The notes under the pieces: model-generated | The model's database searches: none | The model's input: only the letters and a program-made list of their open reading frames with translations | Told to the model about the DNA's origin: nothing | Assembly: GCA_963674935.2 (NCBI GenBank) | Contig: CAXXWZ010000007.1 | Location: 1,117,500-1,181,499 of the forward strand | Origin: Bacteroidales bacterium | GTDB taxonomy: Bacteria; Bacteroidota; Bacteroidia; Bacteroidales; GCA-2711565 | Reading direction: 5' to 3' | Length of the DNA stretch: 64,000 nucleotides | Position numbers and translations under genes: made by a program | Part shown: positions 23,744-39,686 of the stretch, one piece after another | Numbering within the stretch: position 1 is the first letter of the stretch | Layout of the letters: each line of letters starts with the position of its first letter

Positions 23744-23775
23744 TTTGGATTTATTAAAATGATAATATACATTTG
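23744..23775 (+). promoter_or_regulatory. Candidate Bacteroidota sigma-A-type promoter of the efflux operon
   Basis: TTTG at 23744-23747 and TAcaTTTG (TAnnTTTG) at 23768-23775 are separated by 20 nt, about 170 nt upstream of the first ATG (23945). Short inverted repeats follow at 23777-23805. Confidence 0.35.
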
Positions 23776-23944
23776 CAGTGTACTAATATAGTAATACACT
23801 AGTACAATAAAATTTGTTTAGAAAAAATGTCAAAATAAATTGTAACGGAGAGCAAGATTAATCGTCTAAAAATTAATTGTCAAATATTCTAAAAAACTTC
23901 AATTCAGTACATCATTATTATTTGAAAAAAATTAATAACCTCAT

Positions 23945-24826
23945 ATGAAGATTGACATTCAAGGATTAAGTAAAACATACAAGAACGGTAAAACAGCACT
24001 GGAAAACATTAATCTGGAAATTGGAAATGGGATGTTTGGATTACTTGGGCCTAACGGTGCCGGTAAATCAAGTTTGATGCGAATCCTGGTAACTATTATG
24101 AAATCAACTTCTGGTAAGGTTAACGTTAATGGTTATGACCTAGTTAAAAACCGCAAGGAAATCCGAAAAATGTTAGGTTACTTACCACAAGATTTTCGAT
24201 TTTTCACAAAGCTGAAAACATGGGAATTTCTGGATTACGCAGCTGGACTTTCAGGTGTTAAAAGTAAAAAGATTCGATCAGCGAAAGTTGATGAGTGGCT
24301 CGAAAATGTTGGACTTTTTGATTCGAGAGAACGACAAGCCAACAACCTTTCGGGAGGGATGAAAAGACGATTAGGAATTGCCCAGGCACTCATTGGTGAT
24401 CCAAAAATTATTGTGGTTGATGAACCAACAACTGGTCTCGACCCCGAAGAAAGAATCCGATTCAGAAATATTCTTTCAGAGCTCAGTCAGAAAGATGTGA
24501 TCATTGTACTTTCAACGCATATCGTTGGTGACATATCCAGCGTTTGTAATGATCTCGCCTTATTGGATGAAGGCCGGCTTCAATTTAAAGGATCTCCTGA
24601 AGCATTAGTAAATAAAGCGAAAGGGCATGTATGGCAAGTAAATACTTCAGGTACTGAATATGATTTGATTAAAGAAAAGTATGCTGTGATTTCTACCATT
24701 CCAACAGACGAAGGTTGGGAAGTTCAATTAGTTGGTCAAAATATTGAAGCTAAAAATGCAATAGAAATTGAACCGAATTTGGAGCATGCTTATGTTTATT
24801 TTATGGAATATCTATCGAAACACTAA
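23945..24826 (+). CDS. ABC transporter ATP-binding protein (ABC-2/DrrA-like subfamily)
   Basis: 293 aa with Walker A GPNGAGKSS, Q-loop GYLPQDF, signature LSGGMKRR, Walker B IIVVDEPTTGLD and H-loop STHI. A C-terminal ~80-aa extension ends NLEHAY. Confidence 0.9.
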   Translation: MKIDIQGLSKTYKNGKTALENINLEIGNGMFGLLGPNGAGKSSLMRILVTIMKSTSGKVNVNGYDLVKNRKEIRKMLGYLPQDFRFFTKLKTWEFLDYAAGLSGVKSKKIRSAKVDEWLENVGLFDSRERQANNLSGGMKRRLGIAQALIGDPKIIVVDEPTTGLDPEERIRFRNILSELSQKDVIIVLSTHIVGDISSVCNDLALLDEGRLQFKGSPEALVNKAKGHVWQVNTSGTEYDLIKEKYAVISTIPTDEGWEVQLVGQNIEAKNAIEIEPNLEHAYVYFMEYLSKH

Positions 24827-24844
24827 AGGCAAAAGTTTAATAAT

Positions 24845-27800
24845 ATGTTTTCACTCCACGCCCTAAAAACGATCGCCCGCTATGAAATGCGCACTTTATT
24901 GCGAGGTTGGTTTTTCAGAATTTTTGCAGGATTAACCATACTTAGTTTGGGAGGTTTTAATTTAGCCGTCTTCCTTGCTCAAAGTGGTTCTCCATGGCTT
25001 TATAGAGCCTTGCCTGCATCAATGCCTTATGTAAATCTTATCGTTTTAAATTTGGGTCAAGCTATTGTTGCTGTTTTTCTTGCATCCGAATTTTTAAAAC
25101 AGGATCGGAAAAATGATACCGTTGAAGTGATTTATGTACGCTCAATGACAAATGCCGAATATATTTTGGGCAAAACCTTCGGTATTCTGGCAGTGTTTTT
25201 TATTTTGAATTTGGTTGTGCTACTCATTGGTATGGGATTTTCTTTTATCAGTAATGATGCAGCAAAGGGTATCAGTGAGTTTTTTTACTACCCACTTTTA
25301 ATTAGTTTACCTACCTTGATTTTTATTCTAGGTTTGGCTTTCTTTTTAATGACCATTTTTAAAAATCAGGCCATAACATTCATCGTTATTTTAGGTTATA
25401 TAGCCCTAACCATTTTTTACCTTAATAACCAATACTATCACATTTTCGATTATATCGCTTATCAAGTTCCCATGTTTAATTCAAGCATCGCCGGATTTGG
25501 AAACTTACAGGAAGTCCTCATTCATCGCGGTATCTATCTTTTTATAGGGATCGGAATGATTTTCTTTACCATTTTTAAACTGCAGCGATTGCCACAAGCT
25601 AAATTATTCAGTTCTTTTCCATTCATTATTGCTTTGCTTTGTGTGGTTGTTGGTGGATTATTGGCCAATAAATATATCGTATTAAAAAAATCGAATGTCG
25701 AGCTTAAACAGCAAATGATTAGTTTAAACAATCAATATGTTCATTTTCCAAAAGTAAAGGTGATTGATTCAAAGATTGAACTTGAACATTTAGGAGAAAA
25801 AATAAAAGCAAAGGTTGAAATGCAAATAGCTAATTTCAGCGATCAAAAAATTGACACCCTCCTATTTAGTTTAAATCCCTCATTAAATATAACTTCAGTT
25901 CTGATTAACGAGGTACCTACAAATTTCAGCCGGGATTTGCAATTGGTTAAAATAATTCCTGAGTCAAAGATTGAAAGAAGTAAGATTTACAATTTAAATA
26001 TTGAATATGCTGGTTCTATAAATGAAAACACCCATTTTTTAGATGCAGATTTAGAAAACTATGAGGATAATTTTTCCTTGGAAATTTTTCGAATTCGTAA
26101 GAGATACGCCTACTTAATGGAAGATTTTGTTTGCCTCACAAGTGAATCATTGTGGTATCCCATATCGGGAGTTGGATATTCCACGCAAGATCCATCTTTG
26201 TTTTATCCTGATTTTACAAATTTTCATTTAACAGTTAACACTAAAAAAGGATTATCTGCCATTTCACAAGGAAGAACTTCAGAATTAGAAAGTTCAACCT
26301 TTAAGTTTGAGCCTGAATTTGCATTACCAAAAATTAGCTTACTAATCGGGAATTACAATAAACTTTCTCTTAAAGTCGATTCTATCAATTATAATATTTA
26401 TACCATTGAGGGAAATGAATATTTCATTTCTCACTTTACCAATTTGACTGACAGTCTTCCTGGAATTATAAGAGGTCTGAAGAATGAGTATGAAAGTCAT
26501 ATTGGACTGGAATATCCTTTTGAGCGATTTACGTTGGCTGAGGTTCCGATTCATTTTGCCTTAGACAAACACAGCTATTCAATGACAAGTGATGCCATCC
26601 AACCAGAAATGGTTTTCTATTCAGAAAAAGGTGTGACCATGGAAGAAACTGATTTTAAAAAACGTAAAAACCGATCTGAACGTCAAATGAAGAGAGACAA
26701 TGAAGAGATTTCACCCGAGGAACTTCAATCAAGAATATTTAAAAGATTTGTAAGAGGGAACTTTATGGCCAACTCAAATGAATGGTATCAATATGGTGAT
26801 GTTGTGGATCGAAATACCTATTCAATTTTTCCCAATTATTATTCATTTATTACACAATTGCAATCGCCTAAATGGCCTATGCTTGATATCGCTCTTGGTA
26901 TTTATTTAAAAGATAGAAATGAAAATGCATTTTCAGCCAGCAGATGGTTTTTCGAAGGAATTAGTAAAGGTGAAAGAGTTAATTTAGAATTGAAAAAAAG
27001 CTCTTTAGAAGAATTAATGCTAAATGGAATTTCGGAGCAACCTACAAGTGATGAGGTAGATGAGGATGAAATTGTTAGGCTGAACGATGTAATTTTAGCA
27101 AAAGGCGATAATTTGTTCTCACTCTTTAATGCCAGATATGGGCATGATGAATTTAACAATTTTTTGAATGGAATAATCATACAAAACAGACATCAGCCAT
27201 TTTCTTTTGATTCATTTAATAAGGGCATGCAAAGCAGTTTTAATGATACCATATCAAATGAAATTAGCGATTGGTATTCGAAACAAAATCTACCCGGCTT
27301 TCTAGTTAAAGACATAGAAACTTATAAAGTGTTAGAAGGAGAATTTACTAAATATCAGTTAAAATTTAAAATTTCAAATCCAGAGGATATTGATGGTTTA
27401 GTAACCGTGAATGTAGATTTAGATAATCAAGAAATACGTGAAGATAACAATCAGATTAATGTTGATTTTGCCAAAGAAATTTATATTCCCGCACATTCTG
27501 CACGTGAAGTTGGTTTTGTATTTACAACCGAACCAAACAGAATGAATATCTATACTCACATCTCAGAAAACCTTCCCAATAACCTTATTTATGATTTTGA
27601 TTCGTTTGAAGAAATTAGGAAGGTAGCTTCTTTCGACAAAATCCAAACTACTGCCTTATTTACTAATATTGACGAGCCAAATGAAATTATCGTTGACAAT
27701 GAAGATGAAGGATTTGAATTCATCCAAACTACGAATAAAGCATTTCTAAAGGCTTTGGTTGATAAAAATAAGACACAACCCTATAAATATGTTGGAATCA

Positions 27801-28198
27801 GATACTGGAATCCTCCTGTGGAGTGGAAATCGGTTTTACGTTCTGGCTTTTATGGTAAATATGTTCGTTCAGCAATGTACACGAGTTCAGGTGGAGAAGA
27901 CCGAAAAGCTGTTTGGAAAGCACAGCTGGAAGAGGGTGCATTTTATGATGTGTATTGTCATCTTGAAAAAATTAATATCCGCAGAAGAAATCAAACCCGA
28001 AAATCTGATTATCACTTTAAAGTGCATCATGCTGATGGTGTTGAAGAAATACATCTTACAGATGAAGAATTAGAAAATGGATGGAATTATTTGGGATCTT
28101 ATTTTATAAATCCGGAAAATGCGAAAGTTGAATTAGCAAATAAATCAATCGGCCGAATGGTTTTTGCCGACGCCATGAAATGGGTTAAAAATGAATAA
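24845..28198 (+). CDS. ABC-2-type permease (N-terminal ~280 aa, about 6-7 TM) fused to an ~840-aa extracytoplasmic domain with an M1-peptidase-like layout but no HExxH
   Basis: 1117 aa with hydrophobic helices up to about residue 280. After that the protein is hydrophilic. Its strings follow the order of M1 aminopeptidase N-terminal and catalytic domains (..YNLNIEYAGSINEN.., SESLWYPISG, FHLTVNTKKGLSAISQG, IGLEYPFERFTLAEVP). I found no HExxH or GAMEN anywhere in the ORF. Confidence 0.6.
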   Translation: MFSLHALKTIARYEMRTLLRGWFFRIFAGLTILSLGGFNLAVFLAQSGSPWLYRALPASMPYVNLIVLNLGQAIVAVFLASEFLKQDRKNDTVEVIYVRSMTNAEYILGKTFGILAVFFILNLVVLLIGMGFSFISNDAAKGISEFFYYPLLISLPTLIFILGLAFFLMTIFKNQAITFIVILGYIALTIFYLNNQYYHIFDYIAYQVPMFNSSIAGFGNLQEVLIHRGIYLFIGIGMIFFTIFKLQRLPQAKLFSSFPFIIALLCVVVGGLLANKYIVLKKSNVELKQQMISLNNQYVHFPKVKVIDSKIELEHLGEKIKAKVEMQIANFSDQKIDTLLFSLNPSLNITSVLINEVPTNFSRDLQLVKIIPESKIERSKIYNLNIEYAGSINENTHFLDADLENYEDNFSLEIFRIRKRYAYLMEDFVCLTSESLWYPISGVGYSTQDPSLFYPDFTNFHLTVNTKKGLSAISQGRTSELESSTFKFEPEFALPKISLLIGNYNKLSLKVDSINYNIYTIEGNEYFISHFTNLTDSLPGIIRGLKNEYESHIGLEYPFERFTLAEVPIHFALDKHSYSMTSDAIQPEMVFYSEKGVTMEETDFKKRKNRSERQMKRDNEEISPEELQSRIFKRFVRGNFMANSNEWYQYGDVVDRNTYSIFPNYYSFITQLQSPKWPMLDIALGIYLKDRNENAFSASRWFFEGISKGERVNLELKKSSLEELMLNGISEQPTSDEVDEDEIVRLNDVILAKGDNLFSLFNARYGHDEFNNFLNGIIIQNRHQPFSFDSFNKGMQSSFNDTISNEISDWYSKQNLPGFLVKDIETYKVLEGEFTKYQLKFKISNPEDIDGLVTVNVDLDNQEIREDNNQINVDFAKEIYIPAHSAREVGFVFTTEPNRMNIYTHISENLPNNLIYDFDSFEEIRKVASFDKIQTTALFTNIDEPNEIIVDNEDEGFEFIQTTNKAFLKALVDKNKTQPYKYVGIRYWNPPVEWKSVLRSGFYGKYVRSAMYTSSGGEDRKAVWKAQLEEGAFYDVYCHLEKINIRRRNQTRKSDYHFKVHHADGVEEIHLTDEELENGWNYLGSYFINPENAKVELANKSIGRMVFADAMKWVKNE

Positions 28199-29708
28199 TC
28201 ATAACAACAATATAAAAGCAAAAAATAATATGAAACTTGCGAAAATACTGATAGTTGCAATAATGCTCCTATTTATGTCCAATGTAAGCTCAGCACAAAC
28301 AAGACTTACTTTAGAAAAGGCGATGGAAATTGCGTTGCAAAATAGCCCCGACATCACAAAATCACGACTGAATATGGAGCAGAACAAAGAATATTTAAAT
28401 GCTCAGCTCGCTGCATTAAAGTCCAGATTTTCTTTTGAAGTAACTCCGTTTTCTTATTCAAAAACAGATACTTATAACGATTATTTTTCTGAATGGTATA
28501 CCTCCGAAAATAAAGGAGCCAGCGGAAGTTTAACCATTTCACAGCCGGTAAAAATTTCTGACGGAACACTTATTCTTCGGAATGATTTTGGGTATCAGGA
28601 TAATTTTTCAGAATCGAGTAGTAATAATTATAAAGGTTATAATAATAACTTGTATTTACAATACACGCAACCCTTGTTTACCTACAACCGTACTAAGATG
28701 AATCTGACTAAGAACCAGCTTAATCTTGAAAATGCAACACTGGCCTATTCGATAGAAATGTTGAATCTGGAAAGATTGGTTAATCAGGCTTTTTATTCCA
28801 TTTACCAAAAACAAATGGCTTATGAAATTGCCAAGGAGGAATATGAAAATCAAAAAGTAAGTAAGGAAATAATTGAAAGCAAGGTTGAAGGTGATTTATC
28901 TGCGCGGGAAGAATTATATCAGGCAGAATTAAATTTAGCCACAAGTAAATCGAGTTTGGATAATAGCTTTGTTGATCTTGAAAATGCAGAAGATCAATTT
29001 AAGCAACTCATTGGAATGTCTTTGTATGAAGATGTGGAAGTTATTACCGATATAAAATATACTCCGGTTGTGGTCGATCTTGATAAAGCCATTGAAAATG
29101 GCTTAGCACAACGATTAGAATTGGTACAACGTCAGATTAGTTTGGATAATGCACAATTCAGCTTAATTGAAACTTCATCAACCAACGAATTTAGAGGTAA
29201 TCTGACCTTATCTGTAGGAATTATTGGCAATAATGAAAAGCTGACAGATGTTTATAACAGGCCAACTAAAAGTCCTCAGGTTGGATTAACTTTTTCAGTT
29301 CCAATTTTTGATTGGGGGGAGCGCAAAGCCAGAATTCGGGCAGCAGAACTTGAAATTGAGACCCGAGAAATTGATAAAAAATCGCTTGAAGATGATATCA
29401 TCATTAATATCCGGCAGGTATACAGAAACTTGAACAATTTAGTGATGCAAATTAATATTGCCGAGCAAAATGACAGAAATGCGCAATTAACTTACGATAT
29501 TAATCTTGAGCGCTATAGAAATGGTGATTTGACAAGTATTGATTTACAACGTTATCAAAATCAGCTTTCTTCTAAAAAAATGGAAATGTCAAATGCACTC
29601 ATCAATTACAAGTTAGAGTTGCTTAATTTAAAAATACAATCACTTTGGGATTTTGAAAATAACACTTCTTTTATTCCACAGAACTTGCAAAATAACATCA
29701 TCAAATAA
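28191..29708 (+). CDS. TolC-family outer membrane efflux protein
   Basis: 505 aa. A signal-like MKLAKILIVAIMLLFMSNVSSAQ gives a more likely start at 28230. The OEP-type internal duplication is visible (LTLEKAMEIALQNSPD... and ...AIENGLAQRLELVQ...). Long coiled segments are present, and the gene is followed by MFP and RND genes. Confidence 0.8.
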   Translation: MNNHNNNIKAKNNMKLAKILIVAIMLLFMSNVSSAQTRLTLEKAMEIALQNSPDITKSRLNMEQNKEYLNAQLAALKSRFSFEVTPFSYSKTDTYNDYFSEWYTSENKGASGSLTISQPVKISDGTLILRNDFGYQDNFSESSSNNYKGYNNNLYLQYTQPLFTYNRTKMNLTKNQLNLENATLAYSIEMLNLERLVNQAFYSIYQKQMAYEIAKEEYENQKVSKEIIESKVEGDLSAREELYQAELNLATSKSSLDNSFVDLENAEDQFKQLIGMSLYEDVEVITDIKYTPVVVDLDKAIENGLAQRLELVQRQISLDNAQFSLIETSSTNEFRGNLTLSVGIIGNNEKLTDVYNRPTKSPQVGLTFSVPIFDWGERKARIRAAELEIETREIDKKSLEDDIIINIRQVYRNLNNLVMQINIAEQNDRNAQLTYDINLERYRNGDLTSIDLQRYQNQLSSKKMEMSNALINYKLELLNLKIQSLWDFENNTSFIPQNLQNNIIK

Positions 29709-29741
29709 CAAACGAAAATTAACCATACAAACAGTATATTT

Positions 29742-30884: not shown

Positions 30885-30945
30885 CAGGTATTAAAATTCA
30901 TTGCATGGTTAATGCAGCTACTTTTCAAATACTAAATAGAACATA

Positions 30946-33900
30946 ATGAAGAAAATTACGCGTTTTTCAGTACAGTATCCGGTTACCGTTACCATGATTG
31001 TTATTGCAATCATCTTACTGGGTTATATATCGTTCGGGAAACTTAGTGTCGACTTATTTCCCGACATGAATGCACCCCGGATTTTTGTAGAAATAAAGGC
31101 AGGTGAACGTCCTCCAGAGGAAGTCGAAAAACAATATATCGAAAACATTGAAGCTCAAGCTATTCGCCAAAAAGGGGTTACTCAAGTCTCCTCTGTTTGT
31201 ATGGTTGGCTCAGCAAGAGTTACTGTTGAATATGCCTGGGGAAGGGACATGGATGAAGCATTTCTGGATTTACAAAAAGCATTAACAACCTATAGTCAGA
31301 ATTCCGATTTAGAAGAGTTCACTATTACGCAACATGATCCGAATGCCGCGCCTGTAATGATTATCGGCATGTTCCATTCTGAAAATTCCGACATGGATGA
31401 GTTACGGAAAATTGGTGAAAATTATATCAGAAATGAATTGGTTCGTTTAGAGGGAATTGCCGACGTTACCTTAACAGGAACTGAAGAAAAAGAAATTTTG
31501 ATTGAAACAAGCCCTTACATGCTTGATGCCTTCGGGTTAACTTCAGATGATATTGTGGCTCAGATTCAAAACATGAACCGCAATGTTTCGGGTGGAAGCA
31601 TTGTTGAAATGGGCAAAAAATATATCATTAAGGGAGCCGGATTAATTAAAAATTTGGATGATCTAAAAAACATGGTCATCACTTACAAACAGGTCGGTGC
31701 AGCCGCGAATCCACAAGCAGCACAAAGTATTTCAAAGAAAGTTCCTGTGTACTTAAAAGACATTGCAGAAGTTAGTTTTGTAAATAAAGATCCGTTAAAC
31801 ATTGTGAGAATTAACGGTAAAAGATGTGTTGGATTATCCATTTATAAAGAAACCGGATTCAATACCGTATCTGCAGTTAATAATCTGAATGAAACCTTAG
31901 AATCCATCAAAAAAGCCTTACCAGGATACGAATTTATTGTAGTTCAAAACCAAGGAGACTTTATTCAAAATTCAATTTCCGAGGTCGAAGAAACCGCCTT
32001 AATCGGAATCATCATCGCGGTAATAGTGCTATTCATATTTTTGAGAAGATTAAAAGTTACGCTCATTATCAGTTTTGCCATTCCAATTTCCATCATTGCA
32101 ACATTTAACTTAATGTACTTTAACGGGCTAAGCCTGAATATCATGACTTTAGGTGGGTTGGCACTTGGAGCCGGAATGCTTGTGGATAATGCCATTGTGG
32201 TTGTAGAAAATATCTTCAGAAATATGGAACAAGGCATGAGCGTTAAAGAAGCAGCCATTACCGGAACCGCTGAAGTGGGCGGAGCTATAACGGCTTCAAC
32301 TTTAACAACCATAGTGGTGTTTTTGCCCATTGTTTATTTACAAGGCGTTTCAGGTGCCTTATTTAAAGATCAGGCATGGACAGTCGCATTTTCTTTGCTT
32401 GCATCTTTATTTGTAGCAATTTTAGTAATTCCAATGCTCTTTAATTTTGCTTATGGTAAGAAGAAAGTTAAAACGGTTGTTAAATCAATTAAAATTGGTT
32501 GGTACGGTCAACTATTAGCAAAATTATTAAATTATAGATATGTGGTTATCTTGATCGCAGCAATTATGCTTGCAATCACAGTTTATATTTATCCTTTGGT
32601 AGGAAGTGAATACTTACCAAAAACTGAAACCAGTGAATTCAATCTTGATATCGTTCTTACTGAGGGAACAGAATTAAATAGAACTGCTTCAACGGTTGAT
32701 GCCATCGAACAAATGATTGCGTTAGTACTTGAAGGTAAAACAGAAACCATTTTTAGTCAAATAGGTCCTGCCACTTCAATTAGTTCGGATAAATCAGTAT
32801 TTAAAAACGAGAACAGTGCCTCAATTAAAGTAAAATTAAAGCCTGAGGTTGTGCCATTTTCAGAAAGCATTATTTCAACTATTACTGAATTGGTTAGTGG
32901 AATTCCGGATGCAGAAATTACAGTACAACGGGATGAAACTGCTTTGCAATCAACTGTTGGTGCTGATGAGGCACCATTAATTGTTGAGCTTAAAGGTAGA
33001 GATTTGGCGATGCTGGAGAGTATTTCTGAAACCATTAAAACTAACCTGAAAGAAGTACCTGAATTATTTAATTTAAAAACTTCCATCGAAGCAGGAGCTC
33101 CTGAAATTGATGTCGTAATTGATCGGTATAAAGCCAGTTTATTTAACCTTTCAGCGGATGGTATTGCATCGCAGCTCAATGAACTTTTAATGGGCAAAAA
33201 TGCAGGGAAATATGAGAAGTCAGGTGAGATGAGTGACATTACGGTTAAGATGCCCGACATCAGCCTTTACGAATTTTCATCCATCAAATTAAAAAGTGGT
33301 ACGATGGAAGTTCCTCTTTACGAAGTGGCAAATATCAAACGATCTACTTCACCTAAGCAATTGCTACGACGAAATCAAAATCGGATCACAAAAATTACAG
33401 CTGATATTGACAGAAGTATTGCTTTCGATAAAGTAATTGAAAGGGTTAATAACCAACTTAGTGCATTGGTATTACCCGACGGATACACAACAGAAATTGT
33501 AGGGGTTGAGAAAAAACGTCAGGATGCCATGTCGAATTTAAGTTTCGCACTTATTTTATCAGTCATTTTGGTTTACATGGTGATGGCTTCACAATTTGAA
33601 TCCATCATTCATCCATTCACAATTTTGTTAACCATACCTCTAGCTGGTGTGGGTGCAATTTGGGCATTTTTCATTATCGGAACTTCACTAAATATAATGG
33701 CCTTTATTGGAATCATTATGCTGGCTGGGATAGCAGTGAACGACTCAATTATTCTTGTGGATGCCATAAATCAGTTTAAATCGAAAGGCCATTCACTAAA
33801 AGACTCCATCATGAGGGCAGGTGAAAATCGAATAAGGCCAATAGTGATGACCAGTATTACTACAATTTTAGCCTTATTACCATTAACAATTGGTATTGGA

Positions 33901-34065
33901 GAAAGTGCATCACTGCGCTCTCCTATGGCTATTGCAGTAATTGCTGGACTTGTTACGAGTACAATTCTCACATTGATCGTTATTCCTTGCGTGTATTACA
34001 TTTTTGAAACTATGAAGGATGCCATCATGGGGAAAGAAGATCAACCAGAGCTAACAAATTTATAA
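30946..34065 (+). CDS. Efflux RND transporter permease subunit (AcrB/CzcA superfamily)
   Basis: 1039 aa of canonical length. It shows the N-terminal TM followed by a large loop, and the conserved TM4 region GGLALGAGMLVDNAIVVVENIFR. The second-half repeat has GIIMLAGIAVNDSIILVDAI and RPIVMTSITTILALLPL. Confidence 0.9.
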   Translation: MKKITRFSVQYPVTVTMIVIAIILLGYISFGKLSVDLFPDMNAPRIFVEIKAGERPPEEVEKQYIENIEAQAIRQKGVTQVSSVCMVGSARVTVEYAWGRDMDEAFLDLQKALTTYSQNSDLEEFTITQHDPNAAPVMIIGMFHSENSDMDELRKIGENYIRNELVRLEGIADVTLTGTEEKEILIETSPYMLDAFGLTSDDIVAQIQNMNRNVSGGSIVEMGKKYIIKGAGLIKNLDDLKNMVITYKQVGAAANPQAAQSISKKVPVYLKDIAEVSFVNKDPLNIVRINGKRCVGLSIYKETGFNTVSAVNNLNETLESIKKALPGYEFIVVQNQGDFIQNSISEVEETALIGIIIAVIVLFIFLRRLKVTLIISFAIPISIIATFNLMYFNGLSLNIMTLGGLALGAGMLVDNAIVVVENIFRNMEQGMSVKEAAITGTAEVGGAITASTLTTIVVFLPIVYLQGVSGALFKDQAWTVAFSLLASLFVAILVIPMLFNFAYGKKKVKTVVKSIKIGWYGQLLAKLLNYRYVVILIAAIMLAITVYIYPLVGSEYLPKTETSEFNLDIVLTEGTELNRTASTVDAIEQMIALVLEGKTETIFSQIGPATSISSDKSVFKNENSASIKVKLKPEVVPFSESIISTITELVSGIPDAEITVQRDETALQSTVGADEAPLIVELKGRDLAMLESISETIKTNLKEVPELFNLKTSIEAGAPEIDVVIDRYKASLFNLSADGIASQLNELLMGKNAGKYEKSGEMSDITVKMPDISLYEFSSIKLKSGTMEVPLYEVANIKRSTSPKQLLRRNQNRITKITADIDRSIAFDKVIERVNNQLSALVLPDGYTTEIVGVEKKRQDAMSNLSFALILSVILVYMVMASQFESIIHPFTILLTIPLAGVGAIWAFFIIGTSLNIMAFIGIIMLAGIAVNDSIILVDAINQFKSKGHSLKDSIMRAGENRIRPIVMTSITTILALLPLTIGIGESASLRSPMAIAVIAGLVTSTILTLIVIPCVYYIFETMKDAIMGKEDQPELTNL

Positions 34066-34089
34066 CTCATTAAAAAAGAACATAAGTTT

Positions 34090-37000
34090 ATGAGTTTCAT
34101 AATAAAAAGAAAAGTCTTAATAGCCATGCTGTTTACCAGCTTGAGCTTACTGGGATATTATTCATATAAGCGATTACCGGTTGAATTGATTCCGAATGCG
34201 CAACTTCCATTTCTATTTGTGCAGGTTGGTAGCTCAATCGAAGTTGATCCACGCTACATGGAAAGTCAGGCCATCATTCCTCTTGAAGGTGCAATTGGCA
34301 CCCTCGAAGGTGTTGATAAAATCGAGTCAAATGCCGGGCAGCGACAAGGGAGTATCAGAATTTCTTATCAACCAGATGCAAATATCAAATTTGCTTACTT
34401 AAAATTAGCCGAAAAAGTTGATGAAGTTAAGCGAACTTTACCACAAGGCTTTTTTGTTCAGGTATTTAAGTTTGATTTGGAGCAGATTAACAACATGTTC
34501 ATGACCATACAGGCACGTGGAAGTGGTGGCGTTGATCGCGTTAGACAAATGGTAGATAAGGAAATTCTTAATCCATTAAAAAATATCGATGGTATTGCAA
34601 ATGCACAGGTTTTTGGTGGACGAGAAAAATCGATAGAAATACGATTGGATGAAGAGGTTTTAAAAAGTCATGGCCTCTCCCCTGCTGATGTAAGAACTGC
34701 GATTAACCAAAATCAAATGTCGCGTACTTTTGCGGGTAAAGTAAACGAGCATAATCAAATCTATTTCGTTAATGTTGTTTCTGAATTTAAGGATATCAAT
34801 GATCTTTATGAATTAGTTGTTCTTCAAAAAGGCCCTGTTAAACTTAAAGATATAGCTGACATACATTATGGAGTAAAGGAGGAAGTTTCTTACAGTCGTG
34901 TGAATGGGAAAGAATCGGTAACCATTGAATTAACAAGGGATGCACAAGCAAACATCATCAATCTGTCAAATGAGGTCATCAAACGCATTGACCAATTTAA
35001 CAATGAACTGGCAGAGAAAGATCTCGAACTGGTGGTCGAATTTAATTCGGCTGAAACCATGGAGAAAAATATTGACCTGATTATCAATTTAGCACTTGTT
35101 GGTGGAGTTTTAGCCATTTTCATTTTATGGATTTTTCTTAAAAATTTCCGTTTGGTAGTTGCCGTGGCTTTGGCCATTCCAATTTCAGTTTATACAGCAT
35201 TTAATTTTTTCTATGCCTTCGATATTTCAATAAACACGCTAACCCTGTTGGGTATGGCACTAGCCATTGGAATGTTATTGGATAACAGTGTAGTTGTTTT
35301 AGAAAATATCTATCGCTTGGCAGGAAAAAAAGTGAATCCTGATCAAGCAGTAATTCAGGGAACCAAAGAAGTGTGGCGCTCAATATTTGCGGCTACACTC
35401 ACAACTATAACAGTCTTCCTTCCTTTTGTGTTTTCAACTAATTTCTTTATAAGTTTGTTGGGAAAACATATTGGGGTTTCAATTATTTCAACGCTTCTAG
35501 TTTCATTGGTTGTTGCCTTACTTTTAATTCCGATGATTACGCATGCTTTTCTTAAAAAGCGAAATCCACTCAAGCCCATACGTTTTGAAAGCATTTCCTA
35601 TCACAATCGCCTCATTCAGATTTACAGAGTTTTGCTTAAAACTTGTATGCGAAATCCTGGAAAAACCATTATGGGTGCCTTGGGTATTTTCTTCCTCACT
35701 TTAATCATTAGCCTTGGTGTAAGTGCCATTTCATCGCAAGAAGCAGAATTGACTGAGATGAAGCTATACGTTACCCTTCCGAGCGGAACAACATTAGCAA
35801 ATACAGACCTTATCGTTAGAGAAGTTGAAAATAAACTTGTTGATTTGGAAGAAAAGAAGGATATCATCAGTCAGGTTTATGAAGAAGAGGCAATTATTAC
35901 TATTTCTTTGGTTGAAGATTTTAAAAAAATTAGAAATTATTCTGTTCCCGGAATTAAAAATGAAATCATTGATAAATTGGAAGAATTGCGTCAGGCTGAA
36001 TTTAGCTGGGATCCACCGGCTACAGGGCAACGATTTGGCAGTGGTGGTTTTGAAAATGATGATGGCTTTTCAAGAATGCTTGGAATAGGTACACAACAAG
36101 AAAAAGTCGTAATCAAAGGTCAGGATTTTGATCGAATGCTTGATTTAGCCAAAGATGTTGAGTACTATTTGAAACAGCTGAACTCAATGGAGCGGGTAAG
36201 AATTAATACGCCGGCTAAGCGTCCTGAACTGATGCTAAGTTTTGATAAACAACTCATGTCGCTTTTCGATATTCCAATTACTTCCGTTTTATCAGAACTA
36301 AATTCATTTCCAAAAGAATTTTCAAGCGGGATTATTTTTAAACAAGGTACAGATGAATACGATATTCAAATTATTACTGAACTAACTGAAAAACAAAAGT
36401 CGCGGAATGTTTATGACTTAAAACATCTAAATGTTAAGAACAGTCAAAATGCGCGTTTTGAGATTCAAAATATTAGTGAATTTAATTTTACTGAAGGGCT
36501 TTCTACCATTAACAGAACGAATCAGGAAAAACAACTTACGCTTAGATATGAATTTATTTCTGAGGTATCGGACGATAATGATTTATTAAACGCTTCCAGA
36601 ATTGAAGTAGATGAACTAATTGCAAGTATCAATCTTCCATCCGATATTGCGGTTGAAGTAATCCATGAAGAGAATGATTTAGGTGAATTTGGATTTTTAT
36701 TAACGATGGCCTTCATCTTAATTTTCATGATTCTGGCATCTGTTTTTGAATCTTTCAGTGTACCATTCGTCATGATGTTTTCTATCCCGATGGCTGGTAT
36801 AGGCTCTTTAATCGCTTTAGTACTAACAGGTACTTCTATCATGAACGCCAACGTGTTTATTGGTTTCCTAATCCTTTTAGGAATAGTGGTGAACAATGGA
36901 ATCATTATGATCGATTATACGCGCGTACTTCAAAAAAGAGGTTATTCTGAATCGCGTGCCATGATGATGGCCGGACTCGCCAGAGTTCGTCCAATCTTAA

Positions 37001-38805
37001 TTACAGCAATCACAACCATCATAGCATTAATACCTTTGGCACTTGGAAAAGCTGAATTTGTTACGCAGATTGGTGTACCATTCGCCATTACAGTAATAGG
37101 TGGTTTGGCAGTTAGCACCTTGCTCACATTGGTTTTTATTCCTACCGTCAATTCAGGTTTACAAACATCTTTAAAATGGATCAGATCACAATCGATTTTG
37201 ATTAAAGCAATTTTGATTATAATCTGGTCAGGTGGCTCAATTTATATTTTCCTAGAAGTTGATAGTAGAATTTGGCAAATTATTGAATTTATTTTACTGA
37301 TTATTCTTGTTCCTGCTACAATTTATTTTATCAAACATTCTTTACGGCAAGCTAATGAAAAGCTTATTGATTCTAAAACGCCACTTCGAATTGAAATCAG
37401 AAATTTGGTAAAGATTTATGATTGGGACAGTCGTTTTGTGAGAGAGTGGAAATCTGGTTTAAAAACCCGTAAACGACTTGGTTTAGATAAAGAAATTTCT
37501 TCAATAAAAGATTTGGATGGACTTATGTGGCAACTTCCACTCATCGGTTTTGCGATCTATTTTATCTATTTCCATCTTGAAAGTGGATTCTGGTTTTTCA
37601 TACTTCCGGTTGCGCTTTATATTATGCTAACTGGAATGTTAAAACCATTAAGATTATACACGACTCATCTTAAAGAGGCCGAGAAAAAGAAGTGGATGAG
37701 GAGACTACTTTTTACATGCTTAGGGCTCGTGCGTTGGTTATTTCCATTAATTGCACTTGTCATTATTTTCAATAAATATGAATTACTTGGATTAATAATC
37801 CCATTTGGCTTCTTCTGGTATCTAGCCATTCTAATAAAGGTGACCTCTGATAAAATTTACAAAGAGAAAATCAATATCAATAGAATAACAGGAAGATTTA
37901 AAGGAATTAGAAAAGCGTTTAGTCGCTTTGTCCTCATCATTCCTATCATTGGAAAGAAAAAAACGCCATTCAAAGCAGTTAAAGGGGTTTCATTCAATAT
38001 TGAACACGGGATGTTTGGTTTGCTTGGCCCAAATGGTGCGGGTAAATCAACGCTGATGAGAATCATTTGTGGGATTTTGGATCAAAGTTATGGCCAAATT
38101 ACAATTAACGGAATTGATGTTAGAGAGAAACGTGAAGAACTCCAGAGTTTAATTGGATACCTCCCACAGGAATTTGGGATGTACGAAAACATGACCGCAT
38201 GGGAGTTCCTTCATTATATGGGTTTATTAAAGAAACTGCATAATACTGAAGAACGAAATAAAAGAGTTGAGTATGTTTTGAATGCAGTTCACATGTGGGA
38301 TAGCCGTGATACAAAAATTGGTTCCTTCTCTGGAGGAATGAAGCAAAGAATCGGTATCGCACAAATTTTACTTCATTTACCTCGTATACTGGTGGTTGAT
38401 GAACCTACAGCAGGACTTGATCCTAGAGAAAGGATTCGTTTCAGAAATCTCTTGGTAGAATTAAGTAAAGAAAGAATTGTTATTTTTTCTACACACATTA
38501 TTGAGGATGTTGCCAGCTCATGTAATCACGTGGCAGTTATGAAATCCGGTTATCTGCAATATTTAGGAAAACCAATAGAGATGGCTAAAATTGCCGAAGG
38601 TAAAATTTGGAATTTACAATTACACCATCAAGAGTTTGATAAAATTAAGGATAGCCTGAAAATTATTCATCACATGCGGGATGGTGAAACAATTAGAATG
38701 AGGTGTTTATCGAATAAACAACCTCATGCTGCAGCAAATCTGGTTAAAGCTAACCTGGAGGATGCATACTTATGCCTTTTACATCAGGAAGACAAGATTG
38801 AGTAA
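34090..38805 (+). CDS. RND transporter permease fused via six extra predicted TM helices to a C-terminal ABC ATPase domain (1571 aa)
   Basis: Residues 1 to ~1025 are a full RND permease (GMALAIGMLLDNSVVVLENIYR; GFLILLGIVVNNGIIMIDYT; RPILITAITTIIALIPLALG). Two hydrophobic helices follow, then an NBD-beta1-like strand PLRIEIRNLVKIYD (37381-37422), then four more hydrophobic helices. The ORF ends in a complete NBD with Walker A GPNGAGKS (38026-38049), GYLPQEF, FSGGMKQR, ILVVDEPTAGLD and STHI, ending NLEDAY. It is one continuous frame with no internal stop and no in-frame ATG at the junction. Confidence 0.8.
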   Translation: MSFIIKRKVLIAMLFTSLSLLGYYSYKRLPVELIPNAQLPFLFVQVGSSIEVDPRYMESQAIIPLEGAIGTLEGVDKIESNAGQRQGSIRISYQPDANIKFAYLKLAEKVDEVKRTLPQGFFVQVFKFDLEQINNMFMTIQARGSGGVDRVRQMVDKEILNPLKNIDGIANAQVFGGREKSIEIRLDEEVLKSHGLSPADVRTAINQNQMSRTFAGKVNEHNQIYFVNVVSEFKDINDLYELVVLQKGPVKLKDIADIHYGVKEEVSYSRVNGKESVTIELTRDAQANIINLSNEVIKRIDQFNNELAEKDLELVVEFNSAETMEKNIDLIINLALVGGVLAIFILWIFLKNFRLVVAVALAIPISVYTAFNFFYAFDISINTLTLLGMALAIGMLLDNSVVVLENIYRLAGKKVNPDQAVIQGTKEVWRSIFAATLTTITVFLPFVFSTNFFISLLGKHIGVSIISTLLVSLVVALLLIPMITHAFLKKRNPLKPIRFESISYHNRLIQIYRVLLKTCMRNPGKTIMGALGIFFLTLIISLGVSAISSQEAELTEMKLYVTLPSGTTLANTDLIVREVENKLVDLEEKKDIISQVYEEEAIITISLVEDFKKIRNYSVPGIKNEIIDKLEELRQAEFSWDPPATGQRFGSGGFENDDGFSRMLGIGTQQEKVVIKGQDFDRMLDLAKDVEYYLKQLNSMERVRINTPAKRPELMLSFDKQLMSLFDIPITSVLSELNSFPKEFSSGIIFKQGTDEYDIQIITELTEKQKSRNVYDLKHLNVKNSQNARFEIQNISEFNFTEGLSTINRTNQEKQLTLRYEFISEVSDDNDLLNASRIEVDELIASINLPSDIAVEVIHEENDLGEFGFLLTMAFILIFMILASVFESFSVPFVMMFSIPMAGIGSLIALVLTGTSIMNANVFIGFLILLGIVVNNGIIMIDYTRVLQKRGYSESRAMMMAGLARVRPILITAITTIIALIPLALGKAEFVTQIGVPFAITVIGGLAVSTLLTLVFIPTVNSGLQTSLKWIRSQSILIKAILIIIWSGGSIYIFLEVDSRIWQIIEFILLIILVPATIYFIKHSLRQANEKLIDSKTPLRIEIRNLVKIYDWDSRFVREWKSGLKTRKRLGLDKEISSIKDLDGLMWQLPLIGFAIYFIYFHLESGFWFFILPVALYIMLTGMLKPLRLYTTHLKEAEKKKWMRRLLFTCLGLVRWLFPLIALVIIFNKYELLGLIIPFGFFWYLAILIKVTSDKIYKEKININRITGRFKGIRKAFSRFVLIIPIIGKKKTPFKAVKGVSFNIEHGMFGLLGPNGAGKSTLMRIICGILDQSYGQITINGIDVREKREELQSLIGYLPQEFGMYENMTAWEFLHYMGLLKKLHNTEERNKRVEYVLNAVHMWDSRDTKIGSFSGGMKQRIGIAQILLHLPRILVVDEPTAGLDPRERIRFRNLLVELSKERIVIFSTHIIEDVASSCNHVAVMKSGYLQYLGKPIEMAKIAEGKIWNLQLHHQEFDKIKDSLKIIHHMRDGETIRMRCLSNKQPHAAANLVKANLEDAYLCLLHQEDKIE

Positions 38806-38826
38806 ACAAAAAATTAATTGGAATAA

Positions 38827-39534
38827 ATGAAAACATACGATAGATTTCAGATTGTTTGGAAAAGTATTACTTATAACTTAAAGATTATTTTTGCTAATAA
38901 ATTTATTTTCTTTTTGTTCGCGGCAGTAGCTTTTTACCTGATGGTGATAGGAATTATGCTTTTTGAGGATGGTGCAGTTGATGGCTCCGATATATTTAAC
39001 ACACTACTATTTCCAGGCGTTTTAATACTTTTTTATCCTGTCATTTTTAATATTCAGAACGATAAAGATGCCCGTATGCTTGAAATCATATTTGGAATTC
39101 CTAATTATCGTTATAAAGTTTATTTATTACGATTTGGATTAACAATGATGATGATGTTTGTATTTTTAATGTTGATGGGTTGGTTCGCTGTTTTTGCTGT
39201 GGCCAGAATCCCAATACTTCCCATCGTTTATCAGCTTATGTATCCTTTATTATTTTTATCAGGTTTGTCATTTATGTTTGCCACACTAATAAAAAATGCT
39301 AATTCCACAGCTGCTATTATGGTGATTATTGGACTAACTTTTTTTATTCTTGCTGAACCCTTGCAATATAGCAAATGGAATATTTTTCTCGATCCTTTTG
39401 GAGCACCTTCTGATATGAGCCAAACCATATGGGCAAATGTTATTCGAGAAAACAGAATTATTTTATTGGTAGGCACAATTATTTCAATTTTATGGAGTCT
39501 AATAAATTTACAAAGAAGAGAGCGCTTTGTTTAA
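38827..39534 (+). CDS. Small ABC-2-type membrane permease (about 6 TM)
   Basis: 235 aa with six hydrophobic segments and a long first external loop. It lies 21 nt downstream of the NBD-containing fusion gene. Confidence 0.6.
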   Translation: MKTYDRFQIVWKSITYNLKIIFANKFIFFLFAAVAFYLMVIGIMLFEDGAVDGSDIFNTLLFPGVLILFYPVIFNIQNDKDARMLEIIFGIPNYRYKVYLLRFGLTMMMMFVFLMLMGWFAVFAVARIPILPIVYQLMYPLLFLSGLSFMFATLIKNANSTAAIMVIIGLTFFILAEPLQYSKWNIFLDPFGAPSDMSQTIWANVIRENRIILLVGTIISILWSLINLQRRERFV

Positions 39535-39594: not shown

Positions 39595-39686
39595 CCGTCA
39601 TTCTGAACCTGCCTACCGCAGGCAAGCTGGTTTCAGAATCTTTACCTATTTGATAATGAGATGCTGAAAGCAATTCAGTAAGACGG
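39595..39686. repeat. MITE/REP-like palindromic intergenic element
   Basis: The imperfect terminal inverted repeats are ccgtcattctgaa (39595-39607) and ttcagtaagacgg (39674-39686). The internal partner is ggtttcagaat (39629-39639), and a nested hairpin tgcct-accgc-aggca sits at 39610-39624. It resembles the cattctgaa...ttcagaatg / gatgctgaaa...ttcag repeat family common in Bacteroidota intergenic regions. Confidence 0.55.

Follow-up and report, generated by a model that had tools for sequence, protein, structure and literature searches.

Does an operon that encodes both an ABC transporter and a tripartite RND efflux system specify several pumps, or one? The question is raised by a 64,000-nucleotide stretch of a Bacteroidales genome (contig CAXXWZ010000007.1; hereafter, the window), in which seven co-directional open reading frames, g1 to g7, occupy positions 23945-39534 of the + strand. 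In order, they encode an ABC ATPase (NBD), a large ABC-2 permease, an outer-membrane factor (OMF), a periplasmic adaptor (MFP), an RND permease, an RND-NBD fusion and a small ABC-2 permease, with junctions of 18, -8 (31 from the second ATG), 33, 61, 24 and 21 nt. A sequence-only reading had listed the same parts, coordinates and junctions; all seven frames were recovered, and domain mapping by HMM gives matching assignments. Five products were tested (g1, g2, g5, the 1571-aa g6 and g7), and each is an independently called gene on a 1.24 Mb public contig.

The middle of the operon is conventional. Together with aa 1-1025 of g6, the following three genes make up a standard set of OMF, MFP and two RND paralogues:

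28191-29708, + strand: g3, TolC-family outer-membrane factor (OEP, E 7e-42; TolC family, E 1e-26)
29742-30884, + strand: g4, RND-type periplasmic adaptor (TIGR01730 RND_mfp, 175 bits)
30946-34065, + strand: g5, RND permease A, 1039 aa, unfused (ACR_tran, E 5e-216)

The adaptor scores above the RND_mfp cut-off of 94.9 bits, also matches HlyD_D23 and carries a lipobox-like LLASC. The first ATG is probably not the true start of g3 or g4, whose starts should lie further downstream, since alignments with orthologues begin only at about residue 8-32 (about 25-32 for g4); for g3, whose N-terminus is signal-peptide-like, the ATG at 28230 is the likely true start. The two RND sequences share only 28% identity, and the closest solved structure to g5 is MdtB (9lyq, E 6e-94). 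Like MdtABC-TolC and MuxABC-OpmB, the locus combines an MFP and two adjacent RND paralogues with an outer-membrane factor. However, g5 and g6 belong to another RND clade, in which TM4 reads D-N and N replaces the TM10 Lys, and the operon adds a second ATPase and two ABC-2 permeases. Moreover, unlike in MdtABC and MuxABC, one paralogue is fused to six more transmembrane helices and an ABC ATPase. Given the low identity, and a clade that lacks D408 and K940 of AcrB, the MdtBC-style heteromeric pump of the sequence-only reading is no more than possible.

This fusion protein, g6, has 18 transmembrane helices in total, and its parts are as follows:

34090-37164, + strand: RND part, aa 1-1025, 12 transmembrane helices (ACR_tran, E 6e-157)
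37195-37356, + strand: predicted TM13-TM14 hairpin, aa 1036-1089 (AF2 model and hydropathy)
37384-37425, + strand: predicted strand 1 of the NBD, aa 1099-1112, LRIEIRNLVKIYDW (beta strand in the AF2 model)
37504-37863, + strand: predicted four-helix transmembrane bundle, aa 1139-1258 (AF2 model and hydropathy)
37960-38805, + strand: NBD-B core and C-terminal R-like domain, aa 1291-1571 (ABC_tran, E 3e-31)

ACR_tran covers residues 2-1019 and ABC_tran residues 1298-1441, so that about 270 residues with six extra helices separate the RND part from the bulk of the NBD. In the AF2 model, which covers aa 860-1571 (pLDDT 77.5), two helices (177-197 and 201-230 in model numbering, in agreement with hydropathy) form the hairpin that is predicted to bring the chain back to the cytoplasm. 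There, strand 1 of the NBD appears to be detached, with the four-helix bundle inserted between strands 1 and 2. The strand carries a motif, I-x-[IV]-[RQ]-N-L-V-K-I-Y, that is invariant in 67 g6 orthologues; when it was spliced to aa 1290-1571, the start of the alignment to the GldA model moved from model position 16 to 3, with a gain of 4.3 bits. The bundle is kept in all fused orthologues and shows no profile similarity to the membrane domains of g7 or g2. Its even helix count is what the topology demands (two helices, strand 1, four helices, rest of the NBD). Because the bundle splits strand 1 from the rest, a catalytically intact NBD is permanently anchored in the membrane next to the RND transmembrane domain. 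NBD1 of CFTR tolerates a regulatory insertion at the same site, but that insertion is soluble and disordered, a loop some 30 residues long, whereas the one in g6 has about 180 residues and four transmembrane helices. The six extra helices and the split NBD are absent from the sequence-only reading.

Could the 1571-aa frame be an error of sequencing or assembly, with separate RND and ABC genes run together? The g6 gene is in pieces at a few loci (L001, L002, L047 and L165), but these look error-prone, because their neighbouring genes also carry many frameshifts. In 78 of 80 loci, a single ORF holds RND part, linker and NBD; the other two are a contig end and a frameshift-ridden assembly. Among the 120 best protein homologues (1481-1591 aa), which include cultured Marinifilum, Labilibaculum and Ancylomarina, every one has both PF00873 and PF00005. 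Single-ORF loci and full-length database proteins from independent assemblies and isolates refute the artefact, to which we give a negligible chance; the fusion is real.

Gene order is conserved as well. At least 523 species-representative genomes encode a relative of the g6 linker, and at least 435-523 genomes or contigs keep the seven-gene linkage, with identities as low as 35-40%. The order g3-g4-g5-g6 is kept in 63 of 63 loci, g7 lies directly 3' of g6 in 77 of 80, and g1 lies directly upstream of g2 in all 67 loci with enough flank, down to 35% g2 identity. The operon is shared by hundreds of Bacteroidales species, and the recurrence of fused ORF and gene order in hundreds of genomes is far beyond chance. 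A second intact NBD (g1) and the two ABC-2-type permeases always accompany the fusion, and a locus with only a subset of the seven genes was seen once, at L097, which is probably a rearrangement or misassembly. The unit is self-contained, as no other neighbouring gene is conserved beside the seven; no linked biosynthetic genes were found beside the operon.

The free ATPase of the operon is a paralogue of the fused one:

23945-24826, + strand: g1, free ABC ATPase NBD-A, 293 aa (ABC_tran, E 9e-31)

Identity between the two NBDs is 41% over 271 residues, a span that takes in the C-terminal extension (about 90 aa in g1). This bears out the view that they are paralogous along their length, and all the shared motifs quoted for them were found. 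The top NCBIfam model for g1 is drrA and the second-best for both NBDs is GldA; scores are under the cut-offs in each case (drrA 197 bits for g1 against 312; GldA 193 bits for g1 and 182 bits for the g6 NBD against 402.6). Walker A, signature, Walker B-Glu and H-loop are invariant in 66 g1 orthologues, and the catalytic motifs of the g6 NBD are likewise invariant in its orthologues; from these intact motifs, both NBDs look active. The best Foldseek matches of the g6 NBD are TM_1403 (4yer), ABCA4/7/1/3 and NosF (7osf_B, 7o14_B); by class, the NBD is type V and has an R-domain, as do NosF and the ABCA proteins.

The two permeases are unequal:

24845-25738, + strand: g2 membrane part, aa 1-298 (seven transmembrane helices by hydropathy; helices in the AF2 model)
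25751-27289, + strand: g2 ectodomain, predicted M1-aminopeptidase fold, aa ~303-815 (Foldseek)
27302-28198, + strand: g2 C-terminal beta domains (Golvesin_C / Xly-CBD-like domain, aa 994-1113)
38827-39534, + strand: g7, small 6-TM ABC-2-type permease, 235 aa (six hydrophobic segments)

Both appear ABC-2-like, with low profile scores. ABC2_membrane_2 matches g2 at E 2.5e-3, under the Pfam cut-off, and matches 13 of 18 orthologues; JGI labels g2 homologues as NosY-type permeases. g7 itself has no Pfam match, while eight of its 18 orthologues match ABC2_membrane_3 (best E 5e-8) and three match ABC2_membrane_2. No significant profile similarity was found between g7 and the g2 membrane part. The description of g2 as an ABC-2 permease with an external domain stands, and the membrane part is more than a bare six-helix core: an N-terminal amphipathic helix and the ABC-2-type core are followed by a predicted seventh helix, which puts the rest of the protein outside.

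The g2 ectodomain resembles IRAP, ERAP1 and PepN (Foldseek E 3e-17 to 1e-14), in alignments of about 650 columns at 9-13% identity and with a model of only moderate quality (pLDDT 65). Peptidase_M1 also matches weakly, in 13 of 18 orthologues, and neither HEXXH nor GxMEN occurs in any of the 18 members. This points to an M1-aminopeptidase fold that is catalytically dead. Golvesin_C (E 8e-12) is found in 18 of 18 orthologues, and the AF2 model has beta strands in this C-terminal region. The sequence-only reading had missed the peptidase-like nature of the ectodomain.

What do these parts do together? One answer is a regulatory or quality-control module. The ABC part would act as a sensor of a ligand or of cellular ATP, or would build and dismantle the tripartite pump, and would thereby keep a proton-consuming channel closed except at times of need. 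The R-domain-like C-terminal extensions on both NBDs suit this, as they are regulatory in NosF and the ABCA proteins, and no linked regulator gene was seen within the window. However, two permeases and an 840-residue ectodomain would be left without a reason, and the invariant catalytic Glu and H-loop argue for turnover over mere nucleotide sensing. We consider this very unlikely.

Another answer, somewhat less improbable although still unlikely, is that two or three separate transporters, a (g1)2(g2)2 ABC-2 transporter, a second one from the g6 NBD and g7, and the RND pump, act on a shared pathway or stress and stay together only for co-expression or co-localisation, with no mechanistic link between them. 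A permease gene comes right after each NBD gene, as is usual for a complete ABC-2 pair, and other Bacteroidota loci are two-gene units in which a fusion of ABC-2 permease and M1 peptidase has an ATPase of its own. Since both NBDs are fully canonical, lacking the degenerate site seen in many obligate heterodimers, they might form homodimers. Against this, co-expression alone hardly explains an exceptionless fusion with a membrane-split NBD over such divergence, and all seven genes are co-inherited, with L097 as the sole subset locus. Furthermore, a homodimerising NBD on a three-fold RND trimer leaves one NBD unpaired unless the stoichiometry is special.

With the fusion and the seven-gene linkage conserved, it is natural to conclude that the ABC and RND machineries are coupled both functionally and physically, as the sequence-only reading had proposed; physical coupling is very likely. 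Our preferred reading, at a probability of about 0.5, is that the seven genes encode one self-contained envelope-spanning exporter composed of a type V (ABC-2) ABC transporter and a tripartite RND pump. The g6-tethered NBD would pair with g1 over a g2/g7 membrane heterodimer. As only one RND paralogue carries an NBD, a (g5)2(g6)1 trimer would set one ABC dimer beside one RND trimer, and would thereby resolve the mismatch between three-fold and two-fold symmetry. Two-step cooperation is known between inner-membrane pumps and RND tripartite pumps, and the exporter, if real, would be a hard-wired form of it that may use two energy sources, proton and ATP. RND pumps capture substrate from the periplasm or the outer leaflet (reviewed in PMC8277102). 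We infer a hand-off from ABC to RND: ATP hydrolysis by the ABC unit would extract an amphipathic and possibly glycosylated substrate from the inner leaflet or cytoplasm, or flip it, and present it on the periplasmic side, where the dead M1-fold/Golvesin_C ectodomain may serve as its dock or binding chamber. From the periplasm or outer leaflet, the RND trimer would then pick the substrate up and pass it out via the adaptor and TolC-like duct.

A tentative alternative is that the ABC part transports nothing. Its ATP cycle would instead drive, prime or gate the RND trimer through the six extra helices and the g2 ectodomain, the ABC part being a motor or switch that works, like MacB or NosDFY, by mechanotransmission. 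Membrane helices tie the NBD covalently and rigidly to RND TM12, and the NBD has a transmembrane bundle inside it, which suits force transmission; g2 has a huge ectodomain and g7 almost no periplasmic loops. NosF, whose ABC unit is reported to drive a periplasmic conformational change and not transport, is among the closest structural relatives of the NBD. In addition, D408 and K940 of AcrB are missing in both RND paralogues. However, the resulting pattern is not special: of 152 sequences among the nearest RND representatives, almost all with the usual length of an unfused protein, 97 are D-N/N-N and 19 are D-N/N-D. As unfused relatives share it, the pattern is no sign of replaced proton coupling, and the idea that the RND halves have lost such coupling was rejected. 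TM4 is D-N in both paralogues and TM10 is N-D/N in g5 and N-N in g6, with the TM4 Asp and the TM11 Arg and Thr (equivalents of R971 and T978) invariant in 101 g5 and 67 g6 sequences, as expected of a working proton path. Because the charged transmembrane residues are the same as in 150 relatives, most of them unfused, the trimer is presumably still proton-driven. A pure switch would also make two dedicated ABC-2 permeases superfluous. We regard this alternative as possible, though doubtful.

No description of such a system was found in the literature, where the sources carry generic names only, in line with the earlier claim that no characterised system has this organisation. Partial precedents exist. 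In Mycobacterium tuberculosis, PDIM export needs both an ABC and an RND transporter, which are encoded in one locus (PMC11539658): DrrABC, which is of type V and has a single ATPase and two different permeases, and MmpL7 (with LppX). At the level of function, this is a precedent for cooperation between a type V ABC and an RND-superfamily transporter in export of one lipid; however, the proteins there are unfused, there is a single NBD gene, and MmpL7 is an MMPL-type RND with no MFP or OMF. NosDFY and GldAFG couple a large periplasmic domain to an ABC-2 core, and the NBD and R-domain fold of NosF matches that of g6. In contrast, the permease here carries its periplasmic part as a fused domain, an apparent pseudo-peptidase of M1 fold, in place of NosD or GldG, and those systems have no RND, MFP or OMF. 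MacAB-TolC and DevBCA-HgdD join an ABC ATPase to an MFP and a TolC-like duct; the membrane domains here, however, are ABC-2/type V-like and not of MacB/FtsX type VII, the adaptor scores as RND-type, and the operon adds a full RND pair. It is from such ATP-driven tripartite pumps that the idea of mechanotransmission to the periplasm stems (PMC5985334).

The sequence-only reading holds as to parts, fusion, linkage and novelty, but its statement that tripartite ABC pumps use only MacB-type membrane domains was too strong. The permeases of E. coli YbhFSR are of ABC-2 type. This transporter, with its two different permeases, pairs with the MFP YbhG, encoded in the same ybiH-ybhGFSR operon (PMC7190983). 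The likeness to the present locus is the MFP-family protein encoded with an ABC transporter; unlike here, there is no RND and no large ectodomain, and the two NBDs are fused to each other.

Upstream of g1 lies one further feature:

23763-23806, + strand: weak candidate promoter/operator, TACATTTG plus palindrome AGTGTACTAATA/TAGTAATACACT

TACATTTG fits the Bacteroidetes -7 type TAnnTTTG (at 23768-23775), and the palindrome follows just after it at 23777-23800. In a comparison of two sequences, the block is near-identical in the relative L101 (protein identity about 80%), whereas the flanking intergenic DNA has diverged.

Proton-driven RND pumps and ATP-driven ABC pumps are regarded as alternative engines of tripartite efflux. 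In the operon analysed here, one of the two RND paralogues continues at its C-terminus into an intact ABC ATPase, which is thereby fixed permanently in the membrane. This fusion is always co-inherited with a second intact ATPase, two ABC-2-like permeases, an adaptor of the RND type and a TolC-like duct. A covalent and widely conserved union of RND and ABC would mean either a dual-currency pump or an RND pump controlled by ATP. The boldest reading, with a probability of roughly 45%, is a new class of bacterial envelope exporter energised twice, in which a type V ABC heterodimer and a proton-driven RND heterotrimer would work in a single supercomplex.

The seven ORFs described by the sequence-only reading were all found, on the + strand, and the junctions that it had claimed (18, -8, 33, 61, 24 and 21 nt) were confirmed on the sequence. 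HMM domain mapping of the seven proteins, which it had proposed as a check, gave the same parts list.

Genes of the operon and its flanks (window coordinates)
g1, 23945-24826, + strand: ABC ATPase (NBD)
g2, 24845-28198, + strand: large permease with a weak ABC2_membrane_2 match and a Golvesin_C domain
g3, 28191-29708, + strand: TolC-family OEP (outer-membrane factor)
g4, 29742-30884, + strand: RND-type adaptor
g5, 30946-34065, + strand: RND permease, full-length ACR_tran
g6, 34090-38805, + strand: RND-NBD fusion, ACR_tran at residues 2-1019 and ABC_tran at residues 1298-1441
g7, 38827-39534, + strand: small permease, no Pfam match for g7 itself
Upstream flank: T9SS-sorted giant adhesin, GNAT, tail-collar-domain protein, divergent methyltransferase
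Downstream flank: hypothetical protein, cupin, enolase-superfamily enzyme

The database names of the operon proteins are generic, and g1, g2, g5, the 1571-aa g6 and g7 are independently called, nameless genes on a 1.24 Mb public contig. Since orthologues align only from residue ~8-15 of g3 and ~25-32 of g4, the first ATGs of g3 (window 28191-28229) and g4 (window 29742-29830) probably lie upstream of the true starts; the spacing would then come to +31 nt for g2/g3 and to more than 33 nt for g3/g4.

The sequence-only reading had staked its case mainly on conservation of the gene order and of the fusion, and both are clearly conserved in genome, metagenome and protein searches. When one genome per GTDB species was scanned with a profile limited to the g6 linker (residues 1026-1304, alignment A1), relatives of the linker were found encoded in at least 523 species-representative genomes. 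For the 80 best-matching loci among them, every stop-to-stop ORF was translated and compared with g1-g7. The RND permease, linker and NBD form one ORF in 78 of the 80, which argues against the fusion being an artefact, a reading whose chances are next to negligible; the two others are L031, which lies at a contig end, and L047, whose assembly is rich in frameshifts. The order g3-g4-g5-g6 is kept at all 63 of the best loci that reach g3, and g7 directly follows g6 at 77 of the 80, the remaining three being loci that appear to end too soon. Among these best 80 loci, fusion and order are kept down to ~40% linker identity. Loci of this kind occur in the cultured species Labilibaculum filiforme, L. 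euxinus, Marinifilum breve, M. fragile, Ancylomarina euxinus and Sunxiuqinia indica.

The metagenome scan, for which g2 was the query (alignment A2), returned at least 435 relatives of g2. The ATPase gene g1 lies immediately 5' of g2 at every locus with enough flank (67/67, a count that includes four loci outside the distance filter, for which adjacency was read from the locus listing), and g3-g6 are found downstream of g1-g2 down to 35% g2 identity. In the protein search with full-length g6, the best 120 matches are 1481-1591 aa long and all carry both PF00873 and PF00005. Their names are limited to 'efflux RND transporter permease subunit', 'ABC transporter ATP-binding protein' and, at JGI, 'multidrug efflux pump subunit AcrB/ABC-type multidrug transport system ATPase subunit'. 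Four protein matches that might have been natural unfused forms of linker plus NBD (P0045, P0065, P0028 and P0064) were rejected as contig ends or frameshifted assemblies.

Several loci depart from this layout. In L007, an extra 331-aa ORF (5911-6906) lies between g5 and g6, and similar gaps of 0.5-1.3 kb are present in L005, L006, L009, L019, L021, L024, L049, L058 and L059. The g5/g6 junction tolerates insertions, with the downstream fusion gene retained. L097 (16000-23348) is the sole locus where g5-g7 do not come after g1-g4; there, g4 is followed by a 388-aa ORF and then by unrelated minus-strand genes. In its sister contig, L096, 1.4 kb is inserted at this site and g5 and g6 come next; L097 looks like a mobile-element insertion with a rearrangement or a misassembly. 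Fragments of the fusion protein (P0058, P0068 and L048) also turn up on short contigs in bins assigned to Krumholzibacteriota, Spirochaetales and Neomarinimicrobiota, either because the system has spread laterally outside Bacteroidota or because the bins are contaminated.

The ATPase domains of g1 and g6 are paralogues, as had been claimed, with 41% identity over 271 residues that include the C-terminal extension, and all the NBD motifs quoted in support of that claim are present. Both domains have Walker A, the Q-loop (read on the window sequences), the signature, Walker B with the catalytic Glu, and the H-loop. Walker A, the signature, Walker B-Glu and the H-loop are invariant in 66-67 orthologues of each, and neither NBD looks degenerate in its ATP sites. 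A merely regulatory or assembly role for the ABC part is, in our estimate, very improbable. In Foldseek searches, the NBD with its C-terminal domain found its best structural matches in TM_1403 (4yer, E 3e-17), ABCA proteins (ABCA4/7/1/3; ABCA4 at E 5e-15) and NosF (E 2e-14), and these matches place the NBDs in the type V class with an R-domain.

Against the ABC2_membrane families, the permease g2 scores 17.6 bits (cut-off 27.2), and 13 of 18 orthologues match weakly. No such match is obtained for g7 itself, and 8 of its 18 orthologues match ABC2_membrane_3 (best E 5e-8). Aligned with the membrane part of g2 by hhalign, g7 gives a non-significant E of 0.04, with a local LSF..T.IKN match only. 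Seven TM helices are predicted in g2, and the two ABC-2-like permeases have 6-7.

The ectodomain of g2 (~840 residues) matches the M1 aminopeptidases IRAP, ERAP1 and PepN in Foldseek at E ~1e-16 (best 3e-17) over ~650 columns, with 9-13% identity. The four-domain M1 fold is recognised on a moderate model (pLDDT 65), and weak Peptidase_M1 matches occur in 13 of 18 g2 orthologues. M1 aminopeptidases are zinc enzymes, whereas neither the HEXXH-(18)-E zinc site nor the GxMEN exopeptidase motif is present in g2 or its 17 aligned homologues (0/18). The ectodomain is a pseudo-peptidase, an M1 fold with neither motif, and it draws attention to a family of ABC-2 permeases that carry a fused, catalytically dead M1-peptidase ectodomain. 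Past the M1 fold lie beta domains, of which the last is Golvesin_C in 18/18 orthologues.

The remaining genes encode the parts of a tripartite RND pump. The 12-TM RND parts of g5 and g6 match ACR_tran at full length (E 5e-216 over profile positions 1-1020 and E 6e-157 over positions 3-1015, respectively), g4 is an RND-type periplasmic adaptor (TIGR01730, 175 bits against a cut-off of 94.9), and g3 is an outer-membrane factor (OEP E 7e-42; TolC family E 1e-26, below the subfamily cut-off). The RND parts of g5 and g6 are 28% identical, and the nearest solved structure to g5 is MdtB (E 6e-94). Their genes are invariably adjacent among the loci examined, and it is this adjacency that speaks for a putative MdtB2C-like heterotrimer of the two paralogues. 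They fall outside the curated families RND_permease_1/2, MdtB and MdtC; the best scores, 596 bits for g5 and 450 bits for g6, are to RND_permease_2, with a cut-off of 1250.

Both paralogues lack the D407/D408/K940 triad of AcrB. TM4 has Asp-Asn and the K940 position has Asn, a pattern invariant in 101 g5 and 67 g6 sequences, as are the Arg and Thr equivalent to R971 and T978 of TM11. The idea that proton coupling had been lost, or replaced by ATP, in the fused RNDs was dropped, because the same pattern dominates unfused relatives. Out of 1.84 billion proteins, the 150 representatives at 50% identity that lie nearest to g5 (P0241-P0390) are almost all of normal unfused length. In the 152 sequences that include g5 and the g6 RND part, the TM4/TM10 patterns are D-N/N-N in 97, D-N/N-D in 19 and D-D/K-N in four. 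Thus, the pattern marks a large RND clade and is not evidence for lost proton coupling. This clade of ordinary-length RND proteins, with Asp-Asn in TM4 and Asn-Asn/Asp in TM10, poses the question of proton coupling in its own right. Its six long representatives (1347-1509 aa) were searched for further RND-ABC fusions, and an ABC domain was found in 0/6; one carries an OEP domain and one a DeoR HTH.

The connection between the two halves of g6 was modelled with AlphaFold2 (residues 860-1571, 53-sequence alignment, pLDDT 77.5). After TM12 of the RND part, the model has a TM hairpin (1036-1089), a beta strand (1101-1110) and a short helix, then four TM helices (1139-1258), one more helix, and the strand preceding Walker A. 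The detached strand, LRIEIRNLVKIYDW, is invariant across 67 orthologues and resembles the first strand of g1 (KIDIQGLSKTY). When it was spliced onto g6 residues 1290-1571, the start of the alignment to the GldA model moved from model position 16 to position 3, with a gain of 4.3 bits. By the order of elements in the model, together with the splicing result, g6 has 18 TM helices and a four-helix membrane bundle is inserted within its NBD, between strands 1 and 2; the helix parity (2, 4) is that required by topology. In CFTR NBD1, this strand 1-2 loop is the site of the soluble 'regulatory insertion'. The arrangement bears on which membrane insertions the ABC NBD fold tolerates. The six extra helices were also considered as a cryptic ABC-2 permease, and this was rejected (hhalign against the g7 and g2 membrane-domain profiles, E 0.15 and 0.3). 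An ATPase anchored in this manner might be a motor or gate that works on the RND permease through mechanotransmission, a reading that we consider unlikely.

It is highly probable that the parts are physically coupled as one machine; separate transporters that are merely tethered would be a rather improbable outcome. In the twice-energised exporter, the covalent join would be the NBD with its built-in transmembrane bundle, and the tethered g6 NBD would pair with g1 atop the g2/g7 membrane pair. With an NBD on only one RND paralogue, a putative (g5)2(g6)1 trimer would give each RND trimer a single ABC dimer, and three-fold symmetry would thereby be reconciled with two-fold. The ATP-driven ABC unit would flip or extract an amphipathic substrate so that it comes to lie on the periplasmic side, perhaps bound by the g2 ectodomain, and the RND permease, presumably still proton-driven, would push it out via g4 and then g3. 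ATP and the proton-motive force would be spent in successive steps of one cycle across both membranes. For the hand-off mechanism specifically, we put the odds at about even. Its logic has two precedents, namely the capture of substrates by RND pumps from the periplasm or the outer leaflet (reviewed in PMC8277102) and the requirement for both DrrABC and MmpL7 in PDIM export (PMC11539658). Such a machine would bear on the route by which substrates on the cytoplasmic side arrive at RND entry sites, and on the coupling of three-fold- and two-fold-symmetric machines. Because its hosts include cultured and genetically approachable marine Bacteroidales (Marinifilum, Labilibaculum, Ancylomarina and Sunxiuqinia), these hypotheses are open to direct mutagenesis and cryo-EM.

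Among known systems, the operon resembles an MdtABC-type tripartite RND pump to which an ABC stage has been added. The likeness to DrrABC/MmpL7 is one of functional analogy only: g1 scores 197.5 bits against a drrA cut-off of 312.45, and g5 and g6 are ACR_tran proteins with weak partial MMPL matches, whereas the RND of that system is of the MMPL type. The operon also differs from GldAFG, since g1 and g6 score 193 and 182 bits against a GldA cut-off of 402.6, and none of the seven proteins is GldG-like. Nor is the operon of the MacB type: MacB-type (type VII) pumps have a 4-TM FtsX/MacB permease with a periplasmic domain between TM1 and TM2, and no match to FtsX or MacB_PCD domains was obtained on any of the seven proteins. 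The YbhFSR permeases of E. coli are of the ABC-2 type. The statement of the sequence-only reading that tripartite ABC pumps are of the MacB type only was too strong, as ybiH-ybhGFSR of E. coli pairs an MFP with YbhFSR (PMC7190983). Full-text literature searches returned no description of an RND-ABC fusion, of this operon or of ABC-permease/M1 fusions, and for Golvesin they returned Dictyostelium papers only.

Candidate control elements lie on both sides of the operon. Upstream of g1, an intergenic block (window 23763-23806) is near-identical in L101, a relative with ~80% protein identity, and the DNA around it has diverged. The block contains the Bacteroidetes -7-like element TACATTTG and, downstream of it, the palindrome AGTGTACTAATA/TAGTAATACACT. 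This block could be the promoter of the operon together with an operator for an unlinked regulator. No RNA leader or riboswitch was found upstream of g1 by Rfam matches at the gathering threshold in the whole window, and a U6 match in the g1 leader was rejected as a chance match. A scan for sigma-70 promoters and intrinsic terminators gave fewer sites than in shuffles and was uninformative. A compound hairpin, ATTCTGAACC...GGTTTCAGAAT with an inner TGCCT/AGGCA stem, lies 65 nt past the g7 stop (window 39600-39639). With a folding energy of -15.1 kcal/mol (z -1.76, not significant) and no T-run, it is at best a weak terminator candidate.

The window genes flanking the operon are unrelated, and no conserved neighbour that hints at the substrate was found beyond the operon, the flanks differing among the window, L001, L002 and L083. 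A 175-aa protein (window 22134-22661, + strand) that matches the phage Tail Collar domain (E 7.5e-26) and, weakly, Gp10_C sits alone between the GNAT and methyltransferase genes, with no other phage genes nearby. The 2761-aa protein at window 12791-21076 (- strand) has HYDIN/VesB-like Ig, SprB-repeat, Fn3, LTD and PKD-like domains and a C-terminal Por_Secre_tail, and is a giant type IX secretion system cargo or adhesin.
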